A stretch of DNA of 64,000 nucleotides from Psammoneis japonica. Its lineage: Eukaryota. The notes beneath the pieces are model-generated. The model saw nothing but the letters and a program-made list of their open reading frames with translations. It ran no database searches and was not told the origin of the DNA. The DNA lies in contig QPGO01000145.1 of NCBI GenBank assembly GCA_008632985.1, positions 1 to 64,000 on the forward strand. The letters run 5' to 3'. How positions within the stretch are numbered: the stretch's first letter is position 1; the number at the start of each line of letters is the position of its first letter. Positions 1 through 58,789 of this stretch are shown here, one piece after another. A program made the position numbers and the translations under genes.

Positions 1-3000
1 GGCATTGCTACATGTTAGAGGATGGCGGTGAGATTGACAACGTCTTTAGCCGTAACTTGGGTGCTCTTACGAAAGAGGTGGAGAAACTAATTAGCAGGGA
101 AGAAACAGATAAGCAACCGAGCACCTTTTGGATGACAAACCCTCAGAATGAATGGGTCGGAAATGTTGCGGCAGGGTCACAGGTCAATGGGTTTTGGTTC
201 GAACTGCTAAGCAAGGTCCGGGGTCCAACTGCAATGATGCCACTCTCGGCTGGAATGATTCCAAGACAGATGCCACTTCGACGTTTCGATGACAATGCGG
301 CTCACAGCAATGGGCGCCACGGCTTTAGGACGTATCCCGTAAGTTGTGTTCTTTAACTGGACGCAAAGTGTTGCATGCTTTTTGTACTCACGATGCTTAT
401 TTCGTTTCGTACATCTAGAATGGCTACGTTCCTAACAAGATGGCCGAGTTCACCAAATTGAAATCATACAAGAACAATCACGATGGAGTTTTTATGCACA
501 ATAGCTACAACCTTGCAATCGTTGAGGGTCTCATGGCTGATAACCGGCGACAGATCGACTGTGATAGAGCTGACAATGTCGAATTGCGGGAAACCACAAT
601 AATTGGTGTCAGCGATGAATACAAGAGCGTCATTGAACGCCAATCCGACGCTCCGTATCACGACGAGATGGTGGTTGGCGTCGAGCTGCACGGGTTCGCG
701 CTTCACGATGAAAATGACGGTGCCTTCATCAACAACGTCAAATTCTCTGGGTTTCAGTACACCGGAAAGGTCCCGACCTCCCTTATTCATGTCGATGACG
801 AGGTAAAAGTCGGACCGTTCGACTACTGGAGCACAATCAAGAACGTCACAATCAAGAACGATGTCACGGCACCACTTTTTGACTTTTCTACCGCATTGAG
901 AAACGGGGTCACAGACATTTATCTGACTGATTTAGACAGCTCCATGAGGCCTCCAGGGAGTACAGCAAGCGGAACATCAACCGTTGTGAGCATGTCGCCA
1001 ACAATGACGAAATTCCTTGACATGAGCAAGTGCGAATTGATGATAAGGGGGTCCTGTATGTACTGCTCTGAAACGTGCTTAAGATCCATCATCTATCGCG
1101 TGAGTCAGGTAGGGACGAAGTTTACGACCTGTCGCATCTCTGAAGTAGGCAATCCAGGAAAATTCATTGATGTCAAGTCAAGCTTTCACCTTGAGGTGAT
1201 GGGAGAGGATGAAGAAGAGATGCCAAACGAGCTCGAAAACACCCACTACGAGAAGAGTCGGTATTTCTCAGCGGCCCTTCCTCCAGGCAACTATGAGGCC
1301 ACGTTTCTGGACAGGCGTGGGAATCCAATGTGGCCTACATATGTTGAAAAAACAATGGAGAAGGCCAATTGTGAAAATTCCATGCAAGTAAACGCAGTCA
1401 AGGAATTCGTTCCAGAAGCACGTGAACTCACCTGCCAACAACTGATCCGAAATGGTGATTTCGAAATGACGACCAAAGGGTATCCTCACTGGCTTCACAG
1501 CCACACCAAATTAGGGCTTGTCGCTCGAGAGGGAAGGAAAAAGACAAACGCAATAGCAACTATGCTTGTTGATTCCGCGGAAGCGTCGATTGGACAATAT
1601 ATTGATACCCGATGTCTTGAACGCGGCCGTCAGTATGAGATTCAGGCGTGGATAAAACTCGAGAAGAATGGCAGAACAGAATTTTGCGAAGGCCTCAATT
1701 GTCCAAATGCAAGAATCCGAATAAACAAGCCCATGGATGATGCCGGACTTGAGTACGATGATGATGTTTTCATCATCACCAATACCTTTGTTGGTCCTCG
1801 TCTTGAAAATAGCTGGAATCAACTTCAAGGAGTATTCACCGTGACTAAAGAGATGGCTGAGGCATCAAGAGCATTCTTTTACGTGCATCGGGGCGTGAGA
1901 GATATGAAAATGCTTCTCGATGATGTCTCCATAACAATGCTTCCGGAGAAATGTGACGAGCTTGTACGCAATGGCGATTTTTCCACTGGAAACACTACCA
2001 GCTGGCAGAAGCGAGCGATGCGTCGGTCAAAGCCCAGGCTCGACATTATTAGCTACAACCGCAACCCTGCTCTTGTAATGAGGGATCGAGAGTCCACTAT
2101 GGACGGTCCAATGCAGCACCTCAAAACGGGCTGCATGAAGCAAGGAGAAAGGTACCTCGCCACGGCAAAGATTCGACTTTTGAATCGTGATGCACGTAGC
2201 TCACAGGTCATCTGTGACGCAAGTCATTCAAGAGGGCCAAAGCAATGCCCCCGCCTTCGGCTGCGTTCGTTTGGAGATCTAGATCTACCAACCGAAAGAT
2301 ATCAAGACCACTTCCAGGATGCTGTGGCCTTCGCCGACCATGGTGTTTCATCGGATGGGTTTCAGACTGTCACGGGAATTTTTACGGCAACAGAGCTTGA
2401 TGCGCTTGGTGAGCAGAGCCTTTTATTTTTCTACGACTCAGATCGATCGAAGGATTATGCGATTGATGATGTCTCAATCAAGCACCTGCCGCAGAACTGC
2501 AAGAATCTCATAATGAATGGAGATGCAGAATATGCCGATACTCCAAGATTCTGGCGACATTACCAATGGAACGACGGCGAGAAAATTGATGTTGTGAAAT
2601 TGGATCGGGAGAATCATCACGCACTGAAAGTGTCAAATCGCGAAAAGAATTATGACGGTATCCACCAATACGTTGATGCACGCTGCCTTGAGCGCGATTC
2701 GACGTGGACTCTTTCAGCCAAGATGAAACTGATAAACAGAAAAACAGGAAGAGGCGAGAAATGTAACGTTAGCAACCCGCGAGCTCCAAATCGATGCCCA
2801 GCGATTCAGATTACCGGATGGATAGGCGGCGACAAGGAGTTTGACGAGCGGCTGTACATGTCGAACAGACCAGATTGGGAACCAGAAGAGCTCAATACAT
2901 ACGAGGCGAAGATCCAGCTCTCGGGTGATTTCGCTTCATTAGCTGCATGTGACATGGTATCCATCGGCTTCCGCTCTTACCATCTGGACTGGGACCTCAT

Positions 3001-3031
3001 TTTGGATGACGTCTACGTCATACCAAGTTGA
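1..3031 (+). CDS. G8/CEMIP/PKHD1-like beta-helix protein with about 3 C-terminal CBM4_9-like domains (5' part outside the window; intron 339-418)
   Basis: HCYMLEDGGEIDNVF..NLG, STFWMTNP.N...GNVAAGS..GFWFEL motifs; repeated L(I/V)RNGDF(E/S) ... DDV modules; GTAAGT..TAG intron joins ORF 12-356 to ORF 440-3031 in frame (RTYP|NGY). Confidence 0.8.
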
Positions 3032-3263
3032 ATCTTAGCTACTTCATATTTCAAAGTACAAGGTACGGCCTCTAGTGGCTACTAACTAGGGCCTAGAGAG
3101 AGGCGATCTGCGATGGCCTCTTGCGGTCGCGGCGTCGCGGCATTGCTCATTGCAGATTGCAGTCGTGAGCAAGATGCTGGTCGGAATTTGCATCATATAT
3201 TACATACATACAAATAAAATGAATGATATGAAGCACATCTGCCTAAATGTTTTAACAATATGG

Positions 3264-6200
3264 TTAGATTAGGGGTGTTGAACGAACATCGTCCACAAGC
3301 AAGTCCCAACCGAGGTTGAAAGAACGAAATCCAATGGATACTCTATCGCAACTAGCAAGAGCTGATGACACGGTAAAATGAGTTTGGTAGCCGTTCAATT
3401 GCTCTGGCTTCCAGTCTGGGCGATTGGACATGAACAGTTTCTGGTCAAATTTTCGCACTCCTTTGCTCCAGCCGGCAATGCGCAACGGTGGGCAGCCTCT
3501 GTCGACGTGTGTGTCAGATGGGTTACACATCGCGCCCGTTCCATTGTTGTTCCAAATCAGCTGTATGCTTGCCGACACTTTCCATCGCGAGCCACTCGTC
3601 AAACATCGGTGATCCACAAGTTGATGAATTCCGTCGCTGCTGTAAGTGCGGTTCGAAACTTTGAGAAGAGAGTTTTCTCCCTCATTCATCTTCAGAAGTT
3701 CTATGTTAGCCCCACCCCTGTTTATCCAGTGTCTCCAGAGCCTGGGGGTGTCGTCATACTCTCCGTCACCATTCACGATGAGGTCGCTACAATCCTTTCC
3801 GATGGGAACGATGGACACGTTTGCAATCACAAGATCCTTCGATTTTCGCACTCGATCAAATGACAGCACGCTTCTTCCAATCTCATCAGCGTGCGTGGCG
3901 CTGAACACGCCAGACATTGTGCGCCATCCGTCAGGCGTTAGTCCGTGATCTGTAAAAGCAACGCCCCATCCATCATGCCCTACCGACGTCTCGTCGGACT
4001 CATTTCCCAGTTTGAGATACGACGTAACTCGCATTCGTGGGCACGCCACGGTACCTGAAGACGTCGTTACATCACAGTAATACGGCATGCCATCCAGGTT
4101 CTCGAGCTTGAACTTTGATGATGCTAGATATCTGTCTCCTTGAGTAAAACACCCATTTCGAATCTGCTGGATCGGGGTGTCTGATGAAGACATGCGACTC
4201 GACATTTTGAGTGCATACGTGCCGGTTTCATTGTAAATGGCGAGATCTGTCGAATCGCTGGACTTCTCCCAAAACGTTGAATTCCCATTCGAGAAGTTAC
4301 CGTTGAGAACTAAGTCTTCGCAACTGCGATGTACCTTAGACACAGACACGTTGTCTAATGCCATAGTCGCGCCCGTCATTCTTCTCTCCACAAAGAACCA
4401 TGCACTGGATGCGTTTGCTATTCTATCGTCCACCGTCAGCATACCGTGAAGCAGCATCCACCCGTCTGCCCTACTGGGTACGACAAAGGTATCTGCAATA
4501 TCAACTGACAACTCATCAAACTTGAGTCCAGTCTTTCCACGAGGTGTCCGAATTCTCACCCTAGCCTTTGGACAGGTGTCACTGTGACATTGCACAGGTT
4601 GGCCATTGAGATAAAGCTTTACCCAAGCTCTGACCTCATACTGGTTGCCTATCTGTAGACATCTTGTGTCAAGGAACTGTCCTATGGAACCTCGCGGCGA
4701 TGTGTGAATGGTTTCAACAATAGCATTGGATCCGTCTATTCCCGAACCAACCAAAAGACTTAAAGAAGAGTCGCGATGAAGCCAGTAGGGGTAGCTGTCG
4801 CCTGACTTTTCGATATCACCATTTAGAATGAGATTTTCACACGTAGACTCTGTCGCAGGAGGCATGCTGAGGGAGACCGCGTCAGCCTTTAATGCACCCA
4901 TGCATTGGGCATTCTCTACCGTCGCTTCGACATGGGTTGGCCACACCTCCGAACCAAACTTATCATGAAATGAAGACACATACTTGCCAGGAGGGAGTGC
5001 TGCAGAGAAATACCGACCCTTCTGGTAGAGCGTGTTCCTCGTCTCGTCCAGCACGGTGTAATTTCCGGTTTCAACGACTTCGTAATGATATTTGCCAGTC
5101 AATGTTACAAATTTGCTTGCGTTTGTAGCATCTGAAATTCTGCAGGTAAAATCCTCGGTTTCTCCTGGATTGATGCGGTAGACAATGGACCGAAGACATG
5201 TGTTTGGACAATACATGTAGGATCTCTCGTAGACTTTGGTACATTTTTCTGCATCTATGAACTCTTTCATCACAGGTGAGTTGCTCACGACCGCCGAAGA
5301 GCCATTTACCTGGGTTCCACGAGGTCTCATTGAACTGTCCAGATCAATAAGAAAGACATCAGACATTCCAACGGCATCAGCTTTTCTGAAATCAAACCAT
5401 GAAGAAGAAACATCATCAGCGATTTTAACTTCCTCAAGTGTGGTCCAATAGTCAAACTGTCCAACCTGAAATTCATCGTCTATCTGGATCAACGCGCTTG
5501 GGTTTATCCCATCATGGAAACCAGAGAATTCTACACCTCGAATTGTAGCACCGCCTCTAGCCCCCTCACCAGTGAACCCGTGCAACTCAAGGCCAATAAC
5601 TTCATCTTGAAAAGGAGTATCTGGTTGGCTTTGAACTATGTCCCGATATTGAGCGCTGACTCCAATGACGGAAGTCCTGAGAATTTGGATGTCATCTGCA
5701 CGATCGAAATCAGCCTGTCTACGATTATCGGCGAGCACACCTCCTTCGACAATTAGATTCGTGCTTTTGTGAAAGAAAACACCTTCGTTTCGATTCTTGA
5801 AAGACTTTGTACCATTGAAGATTGCAGCTTCGTTAGGCTTGTATCCAGATGGATATGTTCGCAAACCATGCCTTCTGCAACTGTGTATTCGGTTGTCCTG
5901 GAAACGTTTCAACGGAAGCTTTCTTGGATTCATGCCGAACGAGAGTGGCATCTCGGCAGTCTTGTTGTGAAGTAGATGAGATGCAAAGCAAAAGGAAGAT
6001 GAAGCGTGAGCACAACGCAATACCAGTTTCAACGATGCGCATTGTAAAGTTCCAACAAGACTTACGGGACCGCGCACCTCCGTACGAAGCTCAAACCAGA
6101 ATCCATTTTCAGCCGACCCAGCAGCAACATTGGCCAGCCATTCATTGCTCGGGTTTGTACACCAAAATGTGCTAGGTTCATCGTCTGTTTCCGACTGGCC

Positions 6201-8688
6201 AAGGGGCACTTCGACCGGCTTTGTCAGGGCACCCAAGTTACCGCGAAACACGTTGTCAATCTCACCCCCGTCCTCTACAATGTAGCAATGTCCAGAAGTA
6301 TTGTAGGCTACATTCTCGCTTACCGTCAAGTTGTAAGTACCATGAACGACTACGCAACGTTGATTAGACTCACGAATGGCATTCTTGGAAACAATAGCAC
6401 CCCGAACATTACCACACATGTGAAAATGAATCGGCTGCGGGAAAGATCAAGGAGTACAGAGAAATGGTGAGATTCAGGGACACCGACAAGATCAAAACGG
6501 AATCAAGTGTATTGAACAAACGTACGTATCGGCCAAGATTCCCCTGCTGTCCAAAATTGAGAAACTCCACGCCCTCCAAGTACTGGTGAACATGTGGAGT
6601 GTGCATCACAATAAAGTGCGCGCCAACAAGGTCATTGCTGTTGTCGTTTTCTCCTCGAAAGACAATGTTACGGCTCAGCAGCGCCACCTCCGTCGCAAAG
6701 TCCGCACTCTGCCGACGAGTCGTCGGTGGAATAATTGGCTTGTCCAAGTCCAATCGTGTGGTGCCGTCACCGAGCGGCGTTGGTGACGAGGAAAGCCTTC
6801 GAACTTGTTCGTCGTCGAAATTGAGAGTATGTGACGTGATTAAAATTTCAGCTCCCTTTCCCCAGCACTGTGACAATCCCTGGTCCTCTGGAACAATGAT
6901 GGAAGATACCGGACCTTTCAATGCTTCCAGGACAATATCATCAACGTCCATATCGACGGTGGGTGCATCCATTGTCTCGAACTGAATACGGAGATTGCGA
7001 AAGTTTCCAGAAACAAGTTCCGGATCAATGGTCATTTTGGACTCACAAGAAACCCATTCATCCCGAGTTCCCGCTGGACAGGTGGCGATGACCTGCTTTT
7101 CGACCGAACCATCTTCAAAGGTTGCCCTGACTTGCATTTCAGTCACGACAGGCACTTCTGAATGTATTCGTACCTTGGCAGATGCCTTGAACTTTGCTTT
7201 TGCAACAAGACATCCTGGTGCATCAAAGGTATACAGGACTGAATGCGAGTTTGACGAACGTCCATAGTGATGAAAGTATGAGTTCCTTCCTTGACGCTCG
7301 ACCGACAGATAGCCTCCAGAAGTTGTAATTGGATAAGGGTGAATAGGATGGGCTTCGGCATTACCATTTAGAACCAGATTTCCTCCACAGGCATTGACAG
7401 GATCAGGTACGGTTTGCTCAGGTGGAAGAGAAAAGCGAACGTTATCCACTTCAATGTCCACGCCAGCTTCAGGTCCCCGAAGACGCAACAGCTGGTAATA
7501 GTTTTTCGAGTCAAGCTCTTCGTCATCGTACACGACCGTGGCGTAAAAATCATGCCACTTTCCATAACGGGGAGCCTGTAGCTGTCGATCGTAACCCTTG
7601 CGACGTTGAATCGTACGGCTTGGGGTTTCAATCACGGAATCCAACGTGAGGCAGTGCTCATTGAATACGGCACACGTAGTCGGAGAGCCATTCACGGCGC
7701 CACTCTTGGTGAGTTTGATTCTAGCGCTAAAGAGGTAGTCCTGACCCGGAACAAGACAGTCACGAAAGTCCTTCATATCCCATGTGGGGCCTTGCTGATG
7801 AGCCAGTTTGCGTCCCGTCACTAGAAACGTGTTGCGATTCGTCACTTTGAAAAATGCCCCGTACCCTCCTGTTAAGAGGTGCTTGTTTGATCTGTTTGTA
7901 AAACCTTCATTCATGTACGGCGCACTGCCGCGACAGTGTGGGTTGATGTGGTTCGGGTCAATATGAGGTAGCCTTGTAAAATTAGTAGGAGGGTCGATAC
8001 CACCATGAATCACATCTTCGAGTAGCACCCATGTCGGGCACTCTTGGGGTAAACCACGGATATCAACCTTGCCTCCAGCCACGGCAAACGCCTTGGTTCC
8101 GACATTGCACTTGTCGGGCAATGTCTGCGTCGAGTCCTTGGTACAAGCAAATCGATTGTTATCCTCTGGCACAAACTCGGCGGTGGGAGCGTTAGTCAAT
8201 TTGATTTGAATGTTTGGATTATCCGTAACTTGATTCGTAGCCTTCATTTCCAGGTTGCCCTGTACTCGAACAAAGGGAGTCTCGACAATAACCTTGTATC
8301 CATCGGGAAAGGTCAGTGTCCCCCGAATGTCCAAACCATGCGGAAGTACCAGGGTTTCCAACGCAGTGTAATCCATCGTGACGCACACTCCACAGGGAAT
8401 CACAACCATTTCGTTTGTAGGATCAAAGGACAAGCTCGTCCACGTTGTGGAGTTGACGGAACAGGGCTCTGAATTGCAATCCAACGGCCGAAATATCCCA
8501 TGGTGATGATGAGGATGATGAGAGACGTCGGGAGTCAAGATGCGCTTGTCCGATTCAACTTTAGATTTGGGTGGAACCCCGACGCCGGTGGGTGTTCCGA
8601 GTCGACGACCACTTGACGTACTGTGGTGCTCTTGATGAGCAAATACCTCGGGCACTGCCAAGAGCAGCAACCATGGAGAGAACTTCAT
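3264..8688 (-). CDS. Secreted G8-domain/CEMIP-like protein with about 5 CBM4_9-like domains; paralog of the gene at 1-3031 (introns 6435-6525 and 5961-6065)
   Basis: Signal peptide MKFSPWLLLLAVPEVFA; EVALLSRNIVFRG; splicing restores GQQGNLGRY|PIHFHMCG; the second intron is a 105-nt in-frame GTAAGT..AG segment absent from the paralog; colinear with ORF 440-3031. Confidence 0.85.
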
Positions 8689-9169
8689 TGTTGTTTACAA
8701 CTTTCGATTTTTCAATATTTTGAGCCATATTTCGTATGGTATGCTGTATCCTTCTGCTCTCATCTTCCGTTGAAACACCCCCACGTTTTCAGCGGGTGAC
8801 AGAAACCTACCGACAACTGCATATCCAACGTCTGTTTGCATGTCATGGTCCTCGGAGTCCCGTCATGAAACACATGAGCTTGGGCATTGTAGCAAATGGA
8901 AATGAACATGACCGGAAAAGGCCGCATAATGCGTTTTCCGTTGATAGCATCATCGTGTGGGCCAAAAGTCTGTGATCCACTCTAAAACATAATATTTATG
9001 GCATTTGGTTTGTCGTGCTGTATGTCCCAACTACAGATCGCGCGCGATCGATCGAGCGATCGAGCGATCGACGGCGAGCGGCCAATGAATGAAGCAATGA
9101 GCAAGACTCCAAGACCAAGACGGAAGATCGCATCGAGCAATGCAAAAAGCAATGCTAGTGTGGCACTCT

Positions 9170-10570
9170 AGACCACAACATTGTTTGGCTTTTGCTTTTC
9201 TTAGTTGTGTCCGACAGACTCGCAAGACTTTCTTTCCCTGGCACTGCTGGCGCAGCATCTTTCTCTGTGTCAGCATCGTGAGTCAAGACCGTGATGATCC
9301 CAACATTGTGCTGTGCATCAGTGACACAAACTTTGAAACATGCCATTTGATGCTCACACGCATGGAATGCTCACACTTTTTGTTGCTCACTTTGGCAACA
9401 CACTGCAAATGACACGCTGATTTCGGGGGGGTTGTGAACAGTGGGGCCAGCAGGGGGGGGTGATTTTTTTCATTGACCACAATCCTCAGCTGCTCAAGCA
9501 CATTTTCTCAAGTTCTTGAGAGTGGGCAAGATCGAAAACATGCTGCCTCAACCACATCATGAAAACGGGGGTTTCTGGCACAGGCTTCATGAGGACACTG
9601 TGTTCCATGACTTGTTCCTTGGACAACCTTGCCTTCCGGTTGGCGCAGCCCTCTGGCACACTCACTCCCACTGAATGCCCAGAGTTGTGGTGTTTTCTGC
9701 ATCCTCAGCTTGGACTGTGGATGCAAAATGGCACATCATGCAGCAGCTCCTCTCACACAAGTGACAAGGCCTGTGTTGGTGGATGGTGTGACGAGGCCTC
9801 TGACACAGCCAGACAATGGTCACTCCAGATCAAACTTTTGCAGCACCAGACATGTGTGTTGCTCTGTGTTTGTCCAACGTCACCCACTGGGCACAATGCT
9901 GAGAGATTTCATGCTGCAGCTTGCTCATTCTGGCTGGCTTCAAACAATGCAATCTTGGAGCTTCTGGATGGACTGCTGCATGGTCAATCTAAGAGATGCT
10001 GCTGTCAACCAACCCCACATGCTGTTCTCCTTGACACATGAGTGTGTTGTCGCGGGGTGCAGCATCCCTGCTGGCAGCTCAAGGCATTGACTGATGGAAA
10101 GACATGGGAGAAACGCTTCACAAGAATCAAACAGACCCTGGAGTTTTTGATGAGACCACCCTGTGCCCCCTCATGGAAAACACTCAGATTTTTAACCTTG
10201 CTGAGTGAGAAGCACCACCTGCTGATTGTGCTGTGTGGTGTGTGGCCAACACAATGATGTCTTGAGAAAGGTCACCAACTCACATGGCAACTGCAAAGTG
10301 CTGACCAGTTTGTGGATTCTTCCAAATTTGCTGTGCAGTGGAATCTGGCATTTGCGACTGTTGGCAAGAAACTTGTCTGGAGACATTTGGTGATCTTTGG
10401 GAGATGCAAGGGGGGGGCTCAAACTCACGAGGCATCTTTCTCGCAGAGTGCCCTGTCTCTCACCAGTCTCTGGAGGAGCTCTCATGTGTCTGTTGGGCCT
10501 GCTCACAGTGCACCTGGTCAATGACTGCAGAAGTGCTCTGTGAATTTGACATGCTCTGACGACTGTGGGA
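9170..10570 (+). pseudogene. Hypermutated copy of the BTB-discoidin gene family (intact relative at 54949-56011, minus strand)
   Basis: Colinear with the reverse complement of about 54880-56110 including both flanks, e.g. caagaccg(c/t)gatgatccc, ggcaagatcgaaaacatgctgcc, ggatggtgtgacgagg; frameshifted; ATG->GTG and stop TAA->CAA (10407). Confidence 0.9.
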
Positions 10571-10990
10571 CCCCTTGAGAGGAGTCTGTCACATCAGCAG
10601 TTTACCGTACATCCGTGACTGCGCTGCCGCATCCCAGACCCTGGTGGGCGCAGAGGACCCGGAGAAACAACTTCCAAACTCCCCGCAGGCGCCGCCATCA
10701 GCCATGACGGTGCAGCACCGGCAGGCTAAACAAAAAGTGAAAACCGCAACAGAAACCGCAATGGCAAGAGTTAGCTAGAGCCTCCGTTTTCATCTGACAA
10801 CTGTTTTCACAGAACTAGCTATTGGCATTCCGATTAAGCGACAGAAGATAACGCTCGCTTGGAATACTACGAGACTCTCTTGTTTCGGATTTCGGACCGT
10901 GGTCGTATCGACAGACCTGTCTATCATAGCTATCACGTTCGGGTTCGTTTCAGTCCGTTCATCCCCTTCATTATCTGGGCGAAGGCAACA

Positions 10991-11488: not shown

Positions 11489-11719
11489 AAAGCATTACAT
11501 GGCGCAGTTGATCAGAACAACGCCCAACAATGCAGAAGACTTTATCAGAATCGTAGCAAAGTTCCAGGTGAGTCGCCTAGAATGTACCAAGCAACATGCA
11601 AATGGTAATTCTAAATTCTAGAGACACTGTAGGCTAATCACCTTTCAGACTCTAAAGCAATTCATGCATGAACCAAACACAGCGTGCCATTGCCACAAAA
11701 TGTCTTTCGTGCGCAAGAA

Positions 11720-12060
11720 GATGGAGACGCAATTGGAGCTTTGTATCATTTGAAGGTTCTGCACCAGGACACAACAACAACTGCCTTGAACTGCATGTAT
11801 GATATCCGCAGCACTTCTTTTGTGACGCCATCGATGGCAATAAGGTATGCGAGAAATATGTTAACTCCGAGGGCAGCTCCACCGCCAATAGGTGAACATG
11901 CTCCGACGTGAATCATTGTAACTTCTACTGTACTTGCATCCTCACCCCGGACCACATCGAGTACGTACGTCGCGAACCGTCATTACGGCAACGCAAAGAC
12001 TGCCGCTTCTACTCTCTTGCAGTAGTAGCCACTAGTAGAGAGCGGTGGATAACGCAATGA
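11720..12060. repeat. Dispersed repeat, lightly mutated copy (homologous to about 21175-21510)
   Basis: tggagctttgt(a/g)tcat(t/c)tgaagg, cagcacttcttttgtg and catgctccgac are shared and colinear between the two loci. Confidence 0.75.
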
Positions 12061-12775
12061 AAAATCTTACGAGCAGTTGTCTATCATATCTTGCTACGTA
12101 AGTTATTCGCTTTTCGATGCGGCTTTGCCTTCTTGCAATTATCTCACATTGTTCCCGCCGCAGCACTTTCTAACAGTCTTTCCAGTCCGAAGCTCTTTGC
12201 ATCTCTCATCAGGCTTGGCAGTCCAACACGGCCGCTTTAGTCTATCAGATTGGAAAAAGCAGCTCCAGTTTTGTTGCTCGCGTGTCGGCTCGGTGTTCAA
12301 ACAAAACATTCCTGGGATTTGAGAGAAGTATGATGCGCAAATGTCATCGTCACCTTCCCGAGTCATAACTACATCAACAAAGAGTGAGCAGTGCCGCATC
12401 ACACCTCCAGAAAGTGGTCGCGTTGATAGATGAGACGTACGCAGGGATTTTAGAGCTAGCTGTTCTGTGCGCGTGCTACCGCTATGAAGTGGCGTCGTGA
12501 TTTCTAGCTGTAGCCTCATCCTGTTCCCCAGCTGGTGGCGACGTCAATCAATGCATGCCGTCAACCTGTACGCAAGCCCAACTTCTGAAACAGACCCGAA
12601 TTGGCTGCTGCCTTCTAGCTTAAACCTTAGCTCGCTGTGTTGGTTGTGAAAGAGGCTCGCAGGTTTTCTTAACCACTCGACAGATCAATGGGTCTGACCT
12701 TGTACAACTTACATTCGTGCGACCTAGTAGATAGGTCACTCATGGATGGTCCCGGGCAACGACAATGCTGCTGGT

Positions 12776-15819: not shown

Positions 15820-15994
15820 CTGTCCTCATCCAGTGCCAGAATCGGGGAGAAGACCCATTACCTATTGAACCACGTACGCACGTTGGAACGTGCTGTAATA
15901 AGGGTTGGTTGTTGTTTTTCTTCGGTCACCGGCCTGTCTCATTCTTTCAAGATCGACAAAGACAAGCCGCTGTCGTTAGTGTGGTTTAATCGCT
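15820..15994 (+). repeat. Split direct repeat A1
   Basis: ctgtcctcatccagtgccagaatcggggagaag ... gtttaatcgct, repeated at 20346-20516. Confidence 0.95.
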
Positions 15995-16099
15995 ATAAGA
16001 CTGCGACGCAGGATACCTCCGCCGTCTTTGTTCTATCGCACAAAGAATTCGACACGACACGCAGTGTGAACAACCAACCACCAAACGCCGTGAATCCTG

Positions 16100-16760
16100 G
16101 TGACGGGCAACCGCCCGGGCAACCACCGCAACCACCGCCAGCACTTCACAGATTCCCGGCAGGACCTGGACACGTGCGCCGAGGACCCAGCTGTGGAGTG
16201 CTCCCGGAATCCAACGCCAGTGGCGGACATGCAGCATCACATGCAGGTGGAGCTCACATCTTGGTTTCGGCTGCAGGAGATGGCCCACAACGCCGCGGTC
16301 CCTTTCCATGCGTGCCAAGTGGTGGGCGATGCTTCGAAGGGAAACGACTCATGGCGTCACACGCTGCCACCTGCAATCACACTGGTTTCCGGGAGCGCGC
16401 CCGCCCCAACTGCTGCGACTCCCTCGTTGGCCCAGCCCGTGGGTGGTGCCGCACAAAACCCACGCCCAGGCGCACCGGGCGACAACACGCCAGTGCGCAA
16501 CCCCCAATGCGACGAACGTTTCAATGCCGTCCGCGATCGTCCCAACGTTGGGTCGCGGGAGGTAAAGCGGCATTGCACTCAGAATGGGGTCGCACTGCCG
16601 GTCGATGCACAAGGAAACCCACGGTGCCTCCCATGCCACTTGAAAGGGCAGCGCAACTCCAACTGTGGGTGTGTGGCAGACCATCATAATGACCACGCGG
16701 AGAGCGACCAGGCAAACCTCCTCACGTGGGCAACGGAGCATTGGAAGACCAAACAGGTCT
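16100..16760 (+). pseudogene. gag-like ORF remnant of the YR retrotransposon
   Basis: Cys/His cluster CLPCHLKGQRNSNCGCVADH immediately upstream of the RT region. Confidence 0.55.
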
Positions 16761-16949
16761 TCGGCAACGGCCCGAGTTCGGGGACTCTGGGCCGAGAGCC
16801 TTTTCAGCTGCCACCGGCATCGTTGGCAGTGCCGCCACCCCCGCAGGCGGAGAGAATCACAGACAGCAACAACCGCAGCACCTCACGCACGCAGGCCATT
16901 GCACACGCTGTGCAGACTGATGAACCAGGTGAGCAGACATTACTTGACA

Positions 16950-18960
16950 CACAATTGCTGCGTCTCAGAGGACTGAGTTACTTGTTGCATCGCCGCAGCG
17001 GCAGAGGGGACTGGGGACCGTTGCACCGCACACACAAGCACCCAGCCCACAGGCTGCTGCAAAACTGCAAATGCCGCGGCGTCCCCACAACCCTCGCAGA
17101 CGCACCTTGGACACCTCAAGAGCTTGAAGCAAGTTTGGCCAGGGGGGCACACAAGTCCGCCTGTGAGCATGTTGAGTTCCTGCGGGAGGACATGGCCGAC
17201 TGCATCGACAAGGGTTTCTGGGTGGTCCTCCCACATGAGGACATGAAGGAAACCCCAGGATTGCGGCTGAGCCCCATTGGCGTGGCACCCCAGTGTGGTC
17301 GGCGACCACGACCGATCGTCGACTGCACCTTTTACGGCACCAACAACGCGACTCAGCCCAACACCCCGACGGAAGCCATGCAGTTCGGCCGCACCCTGGA
17401 CCATTTGCTGCGCCGCATTTTGCTGGCAAATCCATGCACGGCCGGGTTCACCTCATGAAAGTCGACCTTGCAGATGGCTTCCATCGGGTGCACCTTAACC
17501 CCGATGACGCCCAACAACTCGGGGTGGTTTTCCCACACCTGCCGGGCAAACCCCCTTTGGTGGCCACACCCACACGGTTGCCCATGGGATGGGCCAATTC
17601 GCCACCGTGTTTCAGTGCCGCTGCCGAGACGGTGGCCAACTTACAGCTGGTGCGCGCCGCGACAGCGCCACCACACCCATTGGAGCAATTGGCATCCAGC
17701 CGGGTGCCAACCCATGTGCCCCCACCAACCTCACCACCCGCAACAATCGCTGTGCCGATTCCGACGTCACCAGACCCACACCTCAACCCGAGCCGCCGCC
17801 GGCGCCTAGCCTGCATCGACACATGCGTCGACGACTTCATTGGCGCTGCGCAGGGGTCCGCCGCAGCCCAAAGAAACATGCATCGTGTGTTGTTGCACAC
17901 AATCGACGATGTCTTCCGCCCCACGGATTTGAATGACGTTGCTGCCCGCAAAGAGCCCGCATCAGTCAAAAAGCTCCGCAAGGGTGACGCCACATGGTCC
18001 ACACAGAAAGAGGTGTTAGGCTGGCCAATTGACACCCTGGCAATGACACTCCGACTTGCCCCTCGCCGGCGTGCACGTCTGCACGACACACTCTACAAGG
18101 ACTTCCCCCGCACACGCAAACGCGATGCCGTCCAGGATTGTCAGAAACTCCTGGGAGAACTGCGTTCCCTCGCGGCAGCCATGCCCAGCTCGCGAGGCCT
18201 GTTCTCCAAATTGCAGGAGGCCCTCCGCCACACTACACCAGATTCACGCATCCGACTTGCGGCCAACGTACATTCCATGCTGGACGATTTTCGTGATCTG
18301 CACCAGACCCTGGACTCACGTCCTGTCCGCATCCAAGAGCTCGTGCCACTGCCTCCAACTGCACACGGCTGTCACGACGCTGCCGGCCACGGGGCCGGCG
18401 GGGTGATCGTGCCAACGCCCACCGCAGTCCCCCGAGCCGCCAAGCTACGCCATTCCTCTGGCCGGCGTTGCACTCAACGTGATGCAGGCCCTGTCGCATG
18501 GCGCCTGCGATTCCCCAAGGACATCTCCAACTCACTCGCCACGTATGAGAATCCACACGGCCCCATTGCCAATGCCGACCTTGAACTAGTCGGTGGCATC
18601 GTCCATGCCTGCGCAGCTGCCGACACTTACGACATCCGCGAGCGCACCAACCTCAACCGTGCGGATGACCTTGGCACCATGCATTGGCAATGCAAGGGAT
18701 CGACCACCACAGTGAAACCGGCTTCAAAGCTCCTCCGGCTCCAAGCGTGCCATCAATGCCAACATGTCACACAGGCCTCCATGATTGTCACCCGGGCACT
18801 TGGAACCGAGCGGGTGACGACGCTTCGCACTTGCAACACTTGTCTAATGTCGCGTTCCTTTCTTGTTTGAATTCTGCTTACCCACAGAGCAAGTCTTGGC
18901 GTCTGTGGACCCCGCCACCCGAACTGCGTTCTTACGTGATCTCGGCGCTGTGCAGGAAGC
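16950..18960 (+). pseudogene. Reverse transcriptase-RNase H of the YR retrotransposon (frameshifts near 17435 and 18760)
   Basis: LRLSPIGVAPQ..RRPRPIVD, KVDLADGFHR, RLPMGWANSPP, T[C]VDDF, KEVLGW, DAAGHGAGG, NADLELVG, N..GDDAS. Confidence 0.88.
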
Positions 18961-20041
18961 AGTGCAACGCAGCGTCACCTCTTCCCGAGCCTCCGCCGCC
19001 GACACCCACTGGAACCTTTGGATCAACTTTTGCCGCCAACTGGCCATCAGTCCATTTCTCGAAGACACCAACGATCCCATCCTCTTCCTGCAAGTGTTCC
19101 TCCATCGATTCCGCACCGGTGTCATCACACCAAGAGGCAATCCCGTCCGGGCGCGCACCGCTGAGGATGCCCTGCGGTCGGTTGGGCAGACGTTCGCTGC
19201 AATGGGGTCCGCGGACCCACGTCTCACACCCCAGGGCGGCATGGATTTCCGTCTTGCCCATCAAATCCGTTTTTACAAGAAACAGGATCCGCCGCCCGAC
19301 TGCGTTAAACCAGCTCCAGTCAGCGTCCTCCTCTGGATCTTGCACGCCGCCGCCCTCAGCAACAGCGCCGGCACCAAGGCCATTGCGGATGTGATCACAA
19401 TCGCCTTTTTCTTTTTGCTTTGCCCGGGTGAATGCACAGCCATGCCATCCGACACCACTCCGTTTCACTTGGCAGATCTTCGTTTGACCTCGGGCGGAGC
19501 ACATTTGAACCCATTTGCCACCGCGGCCCCTGCCCTCTTCGCCGCCACCCTCAGCTCCCTCACTTTCGCCACCCAGAAAAGTGGCGTTTGCGGCAAAGTC
19601 ATTGCGCACAGCCTGTCAGGCCACCCAGACCTTTGCCCAACCAGGGCCCTCGTCTGCCGAGTTGTTCACTTGCGCACCTGCGGAGCGCAACCCGACACCC
19701 CCCCAGGGGTGCACTTTGAGAACAGCAGGTGGCACGCCGTTTCCCCTGCCGACATCACGTTGGCACTCCGCACCGCCATCATTGCCCCAGGTCCCAAGAA
19801 CCTGGGCTTCACACCGGCCAATGTCTCATCCCGCTGCCTTCGTGCAGCAGGCGCAACGGCACTGTTGTGTGCCCATGTCGACACCGACCCAATCCGCCTC
19901 TTAGGCCGGCGGCGCTCTGATGAGATGCTGCGCTGCTTGCGCCTGCAAGCCGAGCCTGCCATGCATGGCTTTGCACAAGCCATGCTCGCTGGGGGCAATT
20001 TCGTGCTTCACCCGAATGCTGAAGTGCCCATTGCCCCGTAA
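18863..20041 (+). pseudogene. Tyrosine recombinase of the retrotransposon; frame open but catalytic residues mutated
   Basis: IAFFFLL[C]PGE[C]T, TQKSG, LCPTRAL, LRAAGATALL, RLLGR[R]RSDEMLR[C]L, where LRPGEY and GRWRS....RY are expected. Confidence 0.9.
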
Positions 20042-20140
20042 CCATGCTCCACCAGCCCTCCAGATGGGCCCACCCGCCCAGTCCCAATGCATGTTTGGCC
20101 AGCTGCTGCACCGCCTGCACATCAGTGGGTGGCGCTGGAA

Positions 20141-20344
20141 GCCCTGCCGTCCAGCTTTGGGTGGGGAGAAAACCTTCACAGCGCCAGCAAAGCCATCTCC
20201 ACTCCAAGCACACAATGCATTCCATGAAGTTTACATCACTTTAGAAGAGAGCACGTGACCAGTGGTTTGAACCCACCGTTTCATTCCAGGAGCGCGCTCG
20301 TCCATCCCCGACACAAAGCACGCATGAGCAAAGTGGTGGCAACC
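20141..20344 (+). repeat. Split direct repeat B1
   Basis: gccctgccgtccagctttggg ... gtggcaacc, repeated at 20537-20739. Confidence 0.95.
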
Positions 20345-20345
20345 G

Positions 20346-20516
20346 CTGTCCTCATCCAGTGCCAGAATCGGGGAGAAGCCCCATCACCTGTTGAACCACG
20401 TACACACGTTGAACGTGCTGCAAGGGTTGGTTGTTGTTTTTCTTCGGTCACCGGCCTGTCTCATTCTTTCAAGATCAACAAAGACAAGCCACTGTCATCA
20501 GCGCAGTTTAATCGCT
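20346..20516 (+). repeat. Split direct repeat A2
   Basis: Copy of 15820-15994. Confidence 0.95.
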
Positions 20517-20849: not shown

Positions 20850-21180
20850 TGTGCACTCCAAGATCATCTGACGACATGCAGAAGGAGTGTGACCAAGGCA
20901 TGCATTTGGCAAGATCCCTGGAAGACATGAAATGCAAGAGCTTTGACTCCAAGAAGCCAACCTTGCGGGTGTCCACGACAACATGGACAAGAGCTGCCAG
21001 ACCACAGAGCTTGAAAAGAAAGAACAAGAAGACATGGAGCTGGAGTGCAAGTGTAAATTTGACCTGAGAGAGTGCTGTGACAGCAAGGTGAAGCAGTTTG
21101 AAGATGACAAGGTCGCTGCATTTGCCAAGATGCCAGATGATCATTGCACCAAGCCAGTGAAACAGAGAGAGTGCAAGATG
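20850..21180 (+). mobile_element. Degenerate gag-like fragment, homologous to about 39680-39775
   Basis: aagcagtttgaa ... ca(t/c)tgcaccaagcca shared; translations KQFEDDKVAAFAKMPDDHCTKP vs KQFEKNKTATFTRILGNHCTKP. Confidence 0.5.
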
Positions 21181-21510
21181 GTCCCAAGCTGGAGCTTTGT
21201 GTCATCTGAAGGCCCTGCACAATGACACAACAACTGCCATGAACTGCGTGTGATGTGTCATCCACAGCACTTCTTTTGTGCCACCATTGATGAATGCAAG
21301 GCATGCAAGAAACAGGTGATTTCTGAGGGCAGTTCCCTGTCAATGGCCGAGCATGCTCCGACTGTTGCAGCTGCTGCACTGCTTTCATCCTTGCCTCAGA
21401 TCACATTGAGCACGTCCGTCGCAAACAGTCATGACGGCAATGCAACAACTGCCACCACTGGAGTGCGACTGGCAGAGTGACAGCCAGAGAGCAGTGGGTT
21501 GTGCGATGAA
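21175..21510. repeat. Dispersed repeat, hypermutated copy of about 11720-12060
   Basis: Colinear similarity with TA and CG sites replaced by TG/CA. Confidence 0.75.
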
Positions 21511-24228
21511 CAAGCTCAGAATGTGGGGCCCCATGTCTTTCTATGAAAGTTTGACTCGGCTGCCATTTTGCCATTTGATGCGGGTTTGCCTTTTTGCCAT
21601 GTTTTTTCACATTTTTCCTGCCACAGTGTTTCTCACAGTTCTTCAAAGATTCTCATGCATGAGGGGTTTCCCACATCTCATCAGGCTCAAGAGGACCTTG
21701 AAGTGCACCCACAATCAACATGTGCTCACACACACACAAGTTTCTGTGATTCTTGACTCACATCTGGGCATCCACAGCTTGCTCCTCATCCATGTTGCAA
21801 GGCAGCTTGTTGATCTCAGCCTCCTGAACAACCTTGTGCTTTTCCATCTGCTTGCTCCATTTCTTCTTGTGCATGAAAATGACTGCCACAACACCAATGG
21901 CGAAGGCTGCCCCCAGAACACTGATGGCCACAATGGCACCATTCAGCCATCCATTGTCCCCGCCACCCTCTTGTTCAGTTCAGTGCCCTCATCAAGCACT
22001 GCAAATGCCTTCTTGAGGGTCTCTGTGAGCTGGATTTTTCATTGTCATGGGGACCAGGAGTGCGGTGCCCTCAAAACACCCTGAAAATGCCTTGTTGAGG
22101 GTCTCTGTGCTGGACTCATCCTTTTCATGGGGGGAGGGGCAGTGTCAGCAAAGAAGATCTCAACAACAATGTCCTCATGGACATGGCCAGGATGATTTTG
22201 TTGGTCTTGTTGCTCCTGATGCAAGGAGTCATTCTCAGGTCACAAGCTTGCAACAATCTCAACCCCCTTGTGTGGTCCCTCTGAAGCCTCCCAATGTCAA
22301 TGAATCTTGTTTGCACAACCATTTCAATGCCACCCCTCAGCGCCATCAGCACTGTGGCAGCAGGTGCTCTGTTGAAAACAGCAGCCTCAAAACTGTTGCA
22401 CAGCACTTTGGCTTCATTGCCAAAGCTTTGCAAGGGGCACAACTCTGTTTCACCTGCAGAAGAGATGTCGCTGGTGAGACCTCCATTGTTGCTGCGCTGC
22501 TGTGTGCAGTGATGGGCATCTCACAGTGCAGCTGCCATCACATGCACTGCAATGCCACACTTGAGCATTTTCAATGCAAACACAAAAAGTGTGCTCTGCT
22601 GACAGCAAAATGATGCCAAAGCTGCAGCACCTTGCATGTTTGTGATCTTGTCTTTCAAAACAGGCTGCACATGCACTCAGTGGCACATGCAGTGCCCAGT
22701 TGCAGTTGCCCCATGTGTCAATTGCAGCAGAGACTTTTGCTGCCCACTGGCTGTCACCACCACATCACTTGTCAACATGGTTTGTTCATCCCTGTTTGAT
22801 TTTGGACAAGACTGGGCAGCAGCCAAGACCCAATGTCTGCACACATGCAAGCAGGATTTCTGCCATTTCCAGTGTTGTGCTGCCAGCAGCTCCAAGCACA
22901 CTCCTCCACCCCCTGTGTCTCCAGCTCTTGTTTTGGGGATGTGCTTGGGCACAGAAGATCTCTGCTGCCCCCCCCCCCCCCCCCCTCCTTGCTGTGGACA
23001 AAAGCTGCCCAGATCTGCACCCCAGCAAGATGGTGCCCACCAATGATCCCCAGCAGTGTGTCACAAACAACTTGTTTTAACAAGGGTGTGTCCCTGGGCC
23101 CAGAGTCTCTCCACTGATCTGTGAGCCCCTCTTCCGGGTGTCATTCTGCCTGCCACTCCTTGGCCAATGGTGTGTGCAGCTGCAGCTGCTGTGAATGCCA
23201 ACCCCACTCTCAAGCCCTCTTTTCTGATGGACTCTCACAGAGTGCTCAAGACCCTGGCTCTTGTCCAGAGGCTGAGGTGCTGGGACGCTTGTGTCCCTTT
23301 GTGGAAGCATGTGAGCAACTCTGCTGCAAGTCTCTTCCACACCTGAGTTGTCTTCTTTTTGACAATTCTTTTGATGGGCTCAAGCTGCTTGGTGTCAGAA
23401 GTGGAAAGTTGCCAAGAGTGTCCTCCCATGTGGACAAGTCATGAGCTGAGTCACCAGTTGACTTGCACCGCAAGAGGAGGATTGGAGCACCACAGGTCCC
23501 AAGTGAGGGGCAGATTGGCACCAGAAATGGGGCAAGATCAAAACCCCAAGTCAGCATCAGTGGAGCAAAGTCTTGCAATTTTTGGAAGAAGAAGATCAGC
23601 AAGATGCCACCACTGGCCTGCAGCTTCAGAAGCCTTCATCACTTCAACACAGTTTGACCAAAGCACAGGGGGGGGGGGAAGCTGTGGAGAGTCTGGGCAA
23701 AATGAGATGACAGACTGTGATGAGAGCAGCAAGTCTGCAAGATTTTTGCTGCAGCTCTCTTCTGGAGAAGAGAAAGGTTTTCTCAGGTGTGGCAGAGATG
23801 AAAAGTTCTTTGCATGTGCAAATGTGCGTTTGAGAGCTTGCAGGGCAGCAAAGCAAGCTGCAGATCCAGACATGTCAATGGACAAGAGAAAACAACAGCA
23901 TGGTTGATGCACCAACTGAAGTGTTCAAGAAGCAAACAGCTGCAAAAAAGCAAACAAAATTTGTGTGGAAAACACAAACCTGACTGTGGAATTTCATGAC
24001 TGAGGTGCAGTGGCATGCAAAACAAATGCAACACAGTGGCAACCTTCCAACAAGTCAACAAGGAAGTCATGATTGTGACAGTGCCGTTCAACAATGCAAA
24101 GAAAAAGCATGCTGGAGTGTCAGCCAGCAAGCAGCAATCAAAAGGAAATGTGTTGAACATGGTGGACCTTGAGCCACTCTCTTTGTGGATGGAACAAGCA
24201 CCAAGATGTTGGTGACAATGAAGTGGGG

Positions 24229-27200
24229 TGCAGCATGCGACTCAATCGTGCCACAGTTGTGGATGCGTGCTGCGAAGGACAGAACAATCACACAGAGTTG
24301 ATCGGAAGTCAAAAATCGCAAACACGATCAATGGATGATGTTGACATCTTGTGTGTCAATGCCAATCGTGTTTGGACCATCTGTTGTCACGATCATGTTC
24401 TCCAAAAGGCCTTTTGTCTGTAGAAGCAGCACAGAAGCTTTGGGCCATTGAGAACTCATTCGGAGAAACCAAAAATCAAAGAGCAAAATTTAATCTCATA
24501 ATTTTCACTTTTCGAACTTCATTCTACTTTCGTTCACACTCGTTCTTAGAGCACAGTGCACTGTGCATGCACACCACAGAAGGTAAAAGCATGGAAAATG
24601 AAAATTTCAACTAATGTGCCTTTGCAAATTCATCTATAAACAGGAACGAATCGCGTCAGTTCTGCTGGAATCGATTTCCGAGCGGAAGAAGCTCAACCCA
24701 AGCAGCACCTCAAGATGGAACGCTGTTTTTTGTCTGCCAAATGACAAGATTTGTTCCAATGCGACCCATTCCAAGCACCTCAGGATCAAGGGCTCTACAA
24801 GTGCGCCGCATTGTCCAAATGCCTGCACCAAGTCATGGTTGGAGAGAATGTCAAGTCCTGAGTCAATGTGGTCCAAGAAATGCGTCCACCATGCAAGGAG
24901 AGACTGTTGGAGAGTCTTTTGAGACCAAATCGAAGAGCCTTGAGTCCACAGAGCAAGAGGGAACCATTGAAAAGTACCTCGAGTGTCTCACAACTCATGT
25001 CCTCCGAGCAAATGCACTCCAGAATCAGAAAAATTATCTTTGAGACGATCTGAAGAAACCAGAGCAGCTTGACAGCAAGAAAGCCTCTGACAGACCCAAG
25101 AGGTCAATGATGAGCGTCCACACAACCCTCAAATCGATTCTAAGTCAAATCTAGTGGGAAACCGAGTGCTGATTTATCAGCTGTCACTCGCACCACAAGG
25201 ATGGCAGCATCAGCCTGCTGTCCAAAACATTGAACCATCGGAAATGCCCTTGATGAGCTGATTGAGGTTTGAGTGGTCTGGAGGTCGGCAAGGACGTCTG
25301 TGACAAAAAAACATGTTAAATCAGGCTCTGACAGTGCAGTTGATTCCAAAACCAAAATGGCTCCAAATTTGGTTCCAAAAATGGTCTCCCACATGGCACC
25401 AGAATAATCCAAAGTGAACAAAAGGTCCAATCTTTGAAAAAAGAATGCCCACATCACGGATTAAAGCCATTCTGAAAATGAACCAGCAAAAGAATGCTGT
25501 GGACACTGTGAACATGATCCAAAACAGTGCAGTTCAAATGGCAATCGCGTGTGGTCGCGTCGCGATGACGACAATGCCGTCCGCAAAGAAGAGTTGAATG
25601 CTGTGGTGGTCCAAGCAGTTCAAAATGACACTCAAAGCAAGTTCTTCAAACAAAGATGAAAAGCGCAAGAGCAAAAATTAAGACTCTAAAATGCTTGACA
25701 AATGAAACTGTCAATTTAGAAAAATTGACCCGATCAAGTCCGATCAAAGATTTGCACTGATCGAGGAGCATGGCGCACTGCAGGACATCTGGAAACCCAG
25801 AAAAAGCATCACAGCATGTCATGCTAGTCCTGTTGTCGCTGTCCACATGACTGCTTCTCAGAGAAAAGCAAAAACAAGCTTCTGAGTGTTCTTCTTGACA
25901 AAGAACATCGTCAGCCCATGATTTTGCGCAAAATCATGCGAAAGTTGAGAACCAAAATGTCCGCCACCAAAAACTTGGGAAGCCAAGGGTGAGCTCTTTA
26001 CGACTGACAGCAAAACCCGAGTTCAGTTCTCACTGTGCGAATTTAAGACTCAATGATGTTCAAACAGTGTGTGTCGACACACAAAATCTTCTTCAAGGTC
26101 AGATGGTGTGATCATGGGATGCGACTCAATGTCCAGTCTTGCAATCATGTTAGACTGCGCAATTGAAGAAATCAAATGGGAATGAAAAGCAATTGCCCTG
26201 TGAAGAATGTTGATGCACTCTTTGATGCAGAAATGTTCCAGCTGAATGCCGATCACATTGAAAAATGTGTTGCGGTGAATGGAGTTAACAACGAGACCAA
26301 TGGTTGTTGACTCACATTGTCACGCCATTGACTCTAATCAAGTGACAGCTGCAGCAATGCATCTGACCCAAAAGAAAACACATCATACAAACACTTTTCA
26401 TGGAGGCGAGCAAGATCAAAAATGCTCATGTCACAAGGAAAAAATCGCCTCATTTGGGGATGGTTGGGAAAAAAATCTGTGACAGATTGGCACACATTGT
26501 GTGCACCTGCTTCACATTGGCAAAAAAAGACAATCTCACAGCACCCGCATGGTTGTAATGTACAATGTACGAGGCAAGACACAAACAACGTCACATGAGA
26601 TGTGCCAAAGATTCAAAAACAAACACAAAAATGGACATTTTCATCCACATGGTGCACGAAAGCAGTGCCTTCGGAATGGCAAAATAACACCGGTGTGTCA
26701 AAAAGAAACGTCCAAATGACAATCAAAATCCAAGGGAAAGATGGTTGAAGCAACAAAGAAATCCATAAAGGAACTCATGACCATCCCAGGATTGTCAAGA
26801 CGAAATGGTCAGAAAATGTCCTTGACCATCATCAATCACTTGCGACACGTGGAAGTGCAGGCAGAGCAACATGGCACATAAAGCAAGCCAGCCAGAACTG
26901 CATGAAATCCACAAGCGAGTGAATGCCACAATTAAGAGCGCACTTTAAGCACTGGGCACAATGGCATGTACAATCAATGTCATAAAAGACGCTGCAGGAG
27001 ATTGAGTCCTTGTGTTCATGTCAACAAAGAACGTCAATGAGAACACCCAACGCAATGCCACACACACACATGTCAAGTGAGAAACAAACAATGTCACTCT
27101 CAAAAGACATTCGGAAATCGTAATGGCCCCACATGGCTCACACAAAACAACAACAGTCAGTCATTGCCAATGGTGCAATGCAGTGAATGTGCAGACATTG

Positions 27201-58784: not shown

Positions 58785-58789
58785 CATCA

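Follow-up and report, generated by a model that had tools for sequence, protein, structure and literature searches.

Near-complete loss of TpA and CpG to TpG/CpA in a probable dead paralog of a diatom BTB_2-domain gene and in other blocks of a 64-kb window

Ascomycete RIP, of the type described in Neurospora, is confined to C:G to T:A changes, for the most part at CpA, and creates TpA and AT-rich DNA. CpG loss is common in methylated repeats, and at the RNA level a UA context is a known preference of A-to-I enzymes. To our knowledge, locus-specific hypermutation as a genome defence has been established only in fungi, and only in the form of C-to-T change. In basidiomycetes, transposons carry a CpG-directed, RIP-like hypermutation, TCG to TTG (PMC3318451). 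Dinoflagellate DNA carries 5hmU in place of T, with a preference for TA and TC, and the repeat elements marked by 5hmU overlap with those marked by 5mC (PMC11572971). Additionally, stramenopile-specific deaminases have been predicted, some of them possibly DNA-mutagenizing (PMC3239186), and a relationship to fungal RID is described for diatom DNMT4, whose function is not known (PMC9998398). The accessible parts of the last three sources do not describe a signature in which both TA and CG change to TG or CA, and a literature search, with most subscription journals and supplements outside its range, returned no report of such hypermutation in diatoms or elsewhere.

The DNA considered here, referred to as the window, is a stretch of 64 kb analysed over its whole length. 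Its long ORFs are eukaryotic and nearly without introns, and their products include an aspartyl protease, a patatin, a fatty-acid desaturase and MGDG-synthase-like glycosyltransferases, together with G8/CEMIP/CBM_4_9 proteins and a guanylate cyclase with phosphodiesterase. Among the best 120 relatives listed for the aspartyl protease, high-ranking entries with an organism name are pennate diatoms at about 70-76% identity (the matches listed include Craspedostauros, Nitzschia, Cylindrotheca, Fistulifera and Seminavis), and the desaturase is nearest to a protein-atlas cluster in which Bacillariophyta is the commonest phylum.

The reference state for the locus under study is provided by a BTB_2-domain gene without introns at 54949-56011 on the reverse strand, the N-terminal part of which matches Pfam BTB_2 (PF02214; E=1.2e-10, 42 bits against a cutoff of 21.4); the Pfam search assigned no family to its C-terminal 146 aa. 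As assembled in the window, the gene is frameshifted, with an ORF of 212 aa at 55373-56011 and the remaining 146-aa part in another frame. One base at 55407, situated in a C run on the gene strand, is absent from both read contigs (X1 and X2), and once it is removed an uninterrupted ORF of 353 codons extends from 56011 to a stop at 54949-54951. A first search of the N-terminal part against longer proteins gave no match, and an exhaustive library search then returned 366 proteins matching at E<=1e-3, many of them about 360 aa long. Since the ORF reaches 353 codons without the extra base and the homologs are about 360 aa long, the gene is intact in the reads and the frameshift is an assembly error or an allele; its designation as intact in the preliminary description thus holds for the reads, but not for the window as assembled. 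Furthermore, additional read contigs over 55523-55916 carry 6-13 differences from the window, which indicates that the BTB family is multi-copy.

A relative of this gene, comprising 5' leader, coding region and 3' flank, lies at 9160-10603 on the forward strand. BLASTN pairs 9182-10411 (+) with 54947-56083 (-) at 68.6% identity over 1249 columns (E about 1e-159), and a global alignment of copy and gene contains 947 matches, 213 transitions, 90 transversions and 292 gap columns. TA is retained at 3 of 46 sites, the others having become TG (18), CA (13), TT (6), AA (2) or something else (4), and CG at 8 of 69, with CA (29), TG (24), CT (5), AG (2) and one other outcome in its place. The remaining 14 dinucleotides are retained at 683 of 1084 sites (range 44-77%), among them TG at 82/109 and CA at 63/89; Fisher tests against these other dinucleotides give p=3.9e-15 for TA and p=1.1e-17 for CG. 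Outside YpR dinucleotides, the 671 columns contain 70 transitions and 85 transversions, and this lack of a transition excess indicates that the process is strictly bound to TA and CG and that the two BTB loci are otherwise old paralogs. The copy has many indels, its stop codon has changed from TAA to CAA, and it is recognisable as a BTB relative only via tblastn (29-60% identity, in three frames). All eight substitutions quoted in the preliminary description, including the one at the stop codon and that in the 3' flank, are seen in the global alignment. Its account of the spectrum, in which TA and CG alike turn into TG or CA at nearly every site, agrees with the counts above, and its caution that the loci are paralogs and not necessarily donor and copy is borne out by the transversions and gap columns.

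The direction of these changes was assessed with outgroup proteins, the best 40 of 150 listed among the 366 matches at E<=1e-3, aligned to the N-terminal part of the intact gene and compared at 80 gap-free codons that differ in amino acid between gene and copy. At TA-type codons (n=13) the outgroups agree with the intact gene in 9 cases and with the copy in 3, with one tie; at CG-type codons (n=26) the corresponding figures are 23, 2 and 1. Individual positions are consistent with these totals: Tyr34 is Tyr in 35 of the 40 outgroups and His in the copy, Tyr146 is Tyr in 36 and Cys in the copy, and Arg66 is Arg in 37 and His in the copy. Because the outgroups mostly agree with the intact gene, TA and CG are the ancestral state and TG/CA the derived one. 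The polarity first proposed was therefore right, an ancestral TG/CA not being what the 40 outgroup proteins display, and the reverse course, a RIP-like change of CA/TG to TA in the intact gene, is ruled out by the same comparison.

The affected domain was originally placed at 9170-10570; it is present there, with actual limits at about 9160 and about 10603, slightly past the end first given. In a density scan it appears as a composition block at 9301-10600 with 2 TA and 16 CG in 1300 bp, and the edges of the depleted domain are sharp to within 50-100 bp. Upstream of it, a 23-nt motif at 9000-9022 (+), whose own one CG and one TA are unchanged, recurs upstream of the intact BTB locus at 56187-56209 (-). 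The motif has two matches in the window and none in 100 shuffles, and it lies about 100-160 bp upstream of the contiguous BTB homology, outside the mutated domain. Its occurrence at both loci points to duplication of the BTB locus at the DNA level and lends some weight to the earlier deduction of a DNA-level duplicate from the inclusion of both flanks, but flanks of UTR length would by themselves also fit a retrocopy. Altogether, the region 9160-10603 is probably a dead DNA-level paralog of a multi-copy diatom BTB_2-domain gene that was struck by locus-restricted chromosomal hypermutation. The copy may have been mutated before it moved to its present site, and the evidence for action in situ comes from other elements of the window.

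Traces of the process extend over at least 16 kb of the window. The density scan delimits eight TA/CG-free, TG/CA-rich blocks that amount to 16.3 kb of the 64 kb, with a GC content of 0.46-0.51 and edges sharp to 50-100 bp; over several kilobases, TA O/E in the mutated blocks is 0.00-0.1, CG O/E about 0.05 and TG+CA about 2, against a TA O/E of about 0.5 and a CG O/E of about 1.0 in the genes. Blocks of this type lie at 20851-24300 (3 TA, 30 CG and 799 TG+CA in 3450 bp), 27601-28600 (3 TA and 7 CG in 1000 bp), 29451-32600 (4 TA and 30 CG in 3150 bp), 38151-41000 (14 TA and 16 CG in 2850 bp), 43301-44650 (4 TA and 5 CG in 1350 bp) and, with sharp edges, 47501-49200 (7 TA and 8 CG in 1700 bp). 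A further block on the reverse strand, 58851-59550 (5 TA and 4 CG in 700 bp), is again BTB-related: it contains a very diverged BTB-derived fragment at 58947-59396, with 59-65% identity to the intact gene by BLASTN. Together with the copy at 9160-10603, this fragment upholds the proposal that copies of host genes are targeted. A third BTB copy, at 54% identity too diverged for judging independent hits, gave 13 concordant and 4 discordant outcomes, a split sensitive to the alignment. In total, 151 of 1273 windows of 400 bp are TA/CG-free in the 64-kb window, and no such 400-bp window occurs in 54 metagenome loci carrying relatives of the aspartyl protease (116.6 kb, nearly all of them gene-only contigs of about 1.4 kb).

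A second pair of intact and mutated sequences displays the same spectrum as the BTB pair. Its mutated member, at 21175-21644 (+) within the block 20851-24300, is 69% identical to an unmutated partner that lies at 11718-12182 (+) and has no Pfam match; TA is retained at 1 of 33 sites and CG at 6 of 37, and 19 of the 33 TA sites have become TG or CA, an A:T to G:C change. Pfam searches of 86 ORFs (stop to stop, 100 aa or longer) from the blocks and their surroundings found no family at E<=0.001; relaxing the threshold to E<=0.1 for 81 ORFs yielded only sub-threshold matches at chance level, with nothing credible within the blocks. A weak RVT_1 match in 17239-18867 (E=0.0028, 17.8 bits) falls below the cutoff of 29.6. 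Judging from LTR and repeat structure, the mutated blocks are presumably transposons. Given that they have no detectable protein similarity at E<=0.001, standard annotation of repeats and genes will pass over them; a simple scan of TA+CG density detects them.

Timing and rate can be approached through repeats that were alike when they arose. A partly mutated, LTR-flanked element at 24242-27636 (+) has LTRs at 24242-24560 and 27321-27636 that are 87% identical, and a 2.8-kb interior that is partly depleted (TA O/E 0.17, CG O/E 0.57). Its LTRs differ by CA versus TG at 13 dinucleotides and, at 9 single sites, by TA or CG in one against TG or CA in the other, and background differences outside YpR number 3 in 166 columns (1.8% divergence); 22 of 25 difference events are thus at YpR sites (p=5.6e-5). 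A CA-versus-TG difference needs two adjacent transitions and the background is low, so each such site can reasonably be read only as an ancestral CG or TA that was struck independently, and with opposite outcomes, in the two LTRs. Divergence of this kind, with little background change, shows that the hypermutation took place in situ, on the chromosome once the element had inserted, and at a rate far above background. On the assumption that concordant and discordant hits are equally numerous, each LTR copy was struck at about 66% of its original TA/CG sites, against a background of about 0.9% per copy, which amounts to tens of times the background rate or more. The repeat pair 20141-20347/20537-20742 has a comparable profile, with 5 CA/TG and 5 single CG differences against 2 at 110 background sites.

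The strand on which each site was hit is random. Along the BTB copy, 79 sites with TG (41) or CA (38) outcomes occur in random order (runs test z=-0.78), a set of 34 sites (TG 18, CA 16) gives z=0.02, and there is consequently no sign of one processive event on a single strand. The conversion of CpG and TpA, the two self-complementary pyrimidine-purine (YpR) dinucleotides, to TpG/CpA is one that operates at the DNA level and within restricted loci, site by site and on a random strand, and that is near-saturating and spares other contexts.

Two base-directed activities confined to silenced units could account for the pattern: in the CG half, (methyl)cytosine would be deaminated at CpG, passively or by an enzyme; in the TA half, a TpA-directed activity would either deaminate adenine to inosine or modify thymine so that it mispairs with G, a chemistry that is conjectural. 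A bolder reading, somewhat less likely than not, is that this pennate diatom has an undescribed genome-defence hypermutator working on chromosomal DNA. By deamination or by another route it would convert both A at TpA and C at CpG, in transposons that are silenced and in gene copies that are redundant; no RIP-like system would have been known before it outside fungi, and no natural pathway of A:T-to-G:C DNA hypermutation.

In its CG half the signature agrees with the CpG hypermutation of basidiomycetes or with methyl-CpG decay; its TA half is without a known counterpart, and there is a substantial chance that its chemistry is categorically new. Methyl-CpG decay in silenced transposons of animals and plants likewise turns CpG into TpG/CpA, on both strands and in silenced units only; unlike in that process, TpA is lost here as completely as CpG and is accelerated equally. 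The likeness to the basidiomycete system (PMC3318451) extends to the CG half only, with CG converted to TG/CA at 53 of 69 sites and TCG the most depleted context (0.035 against 0.112 for GCG); that system differs from the diatom process in being fungal and, as far as the accessible part of the report goes, in having no TpA component. Dinoflagellate marking with 5hmU and 5mC supplies a precedent within the SAR lineage for a TA-preferring modification of thymine in repeats, although the accessible part of that report describes no mutational consequence, unlike what is seen in the diatom blocks (PMC11572971).

If real, a hypermutator of this kind would extend hypermutation defence to a major algal lineage, and its TA-to-TG/CA half would point to new enzymology, either a DNA adenine deaminase or a mutagenic, TpA-specific modification of thymine; such TpA enzymology would be of interest for epigenetics and for base-editing tools. 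The BTB pair moreover shows that redundant copies of host genes are destroyed, and not transposons alone, which bears on gene-family evolution in such genomes.

The alternative that survives best, unlikely yet deserving serious attention, is a true RIP analogue in which duplicates would be recognised by homology or pairing at some stage of the life cycle (e.g., premeiotic) and altered by a DNMT4/RID-like enzyme with a partner, the combination of CG and TA changes being a lineage signature. The outline is indeed that of ascomycete RIP: transitions with a dinucleotide preference are made in DNA, in situ and to near saturation, in discrete units (repeats and gene duplicates) with sharp edges, and coding capacity is destroyed. 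Both BTB-derived mutated domains, lying between normal genes, coincide with the duplicated unit, as a RIP analogue would have it, both LTRs of 24242-27636 are struck to a similar extent, and diatom DNMT4 groups with fungal RID in the accessible part of PMC9998398. However, the process fails the defining features of RIP where they were tested. Unlike the rule of C:G-to-T:A change only, 31 of the 46 TA sites of the BTB pair have become TG or CA, an A:T-to-G:C type of change that makes up half of the total and is not explained by an enzyme of the cytosine-methyltransferase type; unlike the TpA- and AT-rich product of RIP, the blocks have had TpA erased (TA O/E 0.00-0.1) at a GC content of 0.46-0.51; and CA, the principal target of RIP, is retained at 63 of 89 sites. 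Also unlike in RIP, the TG/CA outcomes form no strand-coherent runs, and similar repeats may escape.

The clearest instance of sparing is a 402-bp MITE-like element with its own terminal inverted repeats at 28760-29161 (+), which is unmutated, as is its inverted second copy at 32607-33008 (-). The two are 96.5% identical, stand 3.4 kb apart on either side of the block 29451-32600, embedded in mutated DNA, and each retain 29-30 TA and 24 CG; they differ at 3 YpR sites and at 9 of 197 background sites. Despite the similar paralog contigs over 55523-55916, the intact BTB gene has likewise escaped, and both of these cases argue against a simple pairing trigger. In a GC-rich (61%) element at 15820-20516 (+), 175-bp direct repeats are 91% identical, and 8 of 9 single differences have TA or CG in the 5' repeat and TG or CA in the 3' repeat (binomial p=0.039), so that these LTRs are unequally struck, 8 to 1, again contrary to a RIP analogue. 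The 5' repeat adjoins a gene and the 3' repeat adjoins the block 20851-24300, and the bias towards the latter speaks for a positional effect. Conversely, the coincidence of the mutated domain with the duplicated unit in both BTB copies favours homology- or RNA-guided targeting over a purely positional effect of chromatin. The proposal of the preliminary description that chromatin state and not pairing selects the loci is thus supported by the spared gene, the spared MITE pair and the unequal repeats, but is at odds with domains that match the duplicated unit and end sharply; targeting by chromatin state rather than pairing is possible.

Very improbable, compared with a dedicated hypermutator, is an ordinary slow decay of old neutral DNA, in which methyl-CpG deamination and relaxed selection would suffice and no dedicated TA process would exist. 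Such decay would accommodate the age of the BTB copy (155 differences at 671 non-YpR columns), the CpG loss that methylated repeats commonly undergo, and the genome-wide under-representation of TA (O/E about 0.5). It would not accommodate a loss of TA that is as complete as that of CG and directed to TG/CA, or the lack of a transition excess outside YpR contexts. Old non-coding DNA beside genes retains TA and CG, as do the MITEs, and the slow-decay explanation is strongly disfavoured by the LTR pair of 24242-27636, which is young by its 1.8% background divergence and has already accumulated 22 YpR difference events.

Editing at the RNA level, in which ADAR-/ADAT-like A-to-I and C-to-U changes would precede reverse transcription and insertion of the edited copies, has next to no credibility. 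A domain of roughly transcript size, running from leader to 3' flank, a gene without introns and the UA context preferred by A-to-I enzymes are features that such editing would share. It is contradicted for the LTR element, whose repeats, identical at insertion, were struck independently afterwards; unlike in A-to-I hyperediting followed by retrocopying, the LTRs diverged at YpR after insertion and the runs tests are random. The strand-symmetric changes in the BTB copy (TG 41, CA 38, in random order), the strictly dinucleotide-bound and near-saturating specificity, and the lack of a visible poly(A) tail at the 3' end of that copy are likewise contrary to it.

Misreading of modified CG and TA bases in silenced DNA, as an artefact of base calling or assembly, was considered because two single-base indels against the read contigs in 6 kb (at 55407 and 56286), errors typical of long-read assemblies, suggest an assembly of that kind, but it is exceedingly improbable as the source of the mutated state, given that the X1 read contig over 58755-59974, at a depth of 64 like its neighbours, has a single difference from the mutated block, that the 90 transversions and 292 gap columns of the BTB copy are not expected from miscalling, and that LTR copies carry CA and TG at the same site. 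All read contigs derive from one sample, the source of the three DNA runs listed for 54000-60000, and they provide a check on the base calling and assembly of the block at 58.8-59.5 kb, not on another individual.

The few target dinucleotides left in the mutated blocks are themselves biased in context. Residual TA is concentrated in YTAA: TTAA (12) and CTAA (11) together supply 23 of 42 occurrences, whereas the figure for normal DNA is 88 of 1322. The CG that is left stands most often behind G or ahead of C and least often behind T, with block/normal ratios by 5' base of 0.035 for T, 0.039 for C, 0.058 for A and 0.112 for G.

The TA and CG sites that persist within the mutated blocks, eight sharply bounded, TG/CA-rich stretches amounting to 16.3 kb, are biased in sequence context. 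YTAA accounts for 23 of their 42 residual TA (12 in TTAA and 11 in CTAA), compared with 88 of 1322 TA in normal DNA, and CTAA is retained 11 times against 3 for its complement, TTAG. Among residual CG, GCGC and GCGG are favoured. These preferences may constitute a context fingerprint of the mutator behind the hypermutation that turns TA and CG into TG/CA.

A GC-rich element (61%) at 15820-20516, bounded by 175-bp direct repeats at both ends, has an interior in which observed/expected ratios are 0.17 for TA, approximately 1.5 for TG/CA and 0.85 for CG. Two readings fit: TA conversion may be able to proceed independently of CG conversion, or the element may have had such a composition from the start. 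Its ORF at 17239-18867 gives a weak, sub-threshold Pfam match to RVT_1 (E=0.0028).

A CG-rich simple repeat of GATCGAGC-like units occupies 9023-9140, between the 23-nt upstream motif shared with the intact BTB gene and the mutated BTB copy, its dead paralog. As CG is not depleted in this repeat, its expansion may postdate the episode of mutation. A 402-bp MITE-like element is present as two mutually inverted copies (28760-29161 and 32607-33008), each bearing terminal inverted repeats of its own. Both copies lie as insertions within mutated DNA, yet they are themselves unmutated and have a high content of TA and CG.

Comparison with contigs derived from the reads of two sequencing runs of one sample revealed single-base indels: the base at window position 55407 is absent from these contigs, and an additional G is present in them behind position 56286. 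Other frameshifts in the same assembly may likewise be errors. Two pairs of neighbouring same-strand ORFs lie at 49609-51727 and 61625-63669, one comprising an MGDG_synth N-terminal part followed by Glyco_tran_28_C, and the other a guanylate cyclase followed by PDEase_I; each pair is probably a single gene whose reading frame is interrupted, either by an indel in the assembly or by a short intron.

The divergent genes at 440-3031 (+) and 3264-6419 (-) both carry CBM_4_9 domains and have the appearance of an ancient paralogous pair in inverted orientation, and self-comparison of the window yielded a long but weak (57%) inverted match over 3-6290. The same self-comparison also returned a 100-bp inverted repeat with 82% identity between 54025-54124 and 33162-33262.
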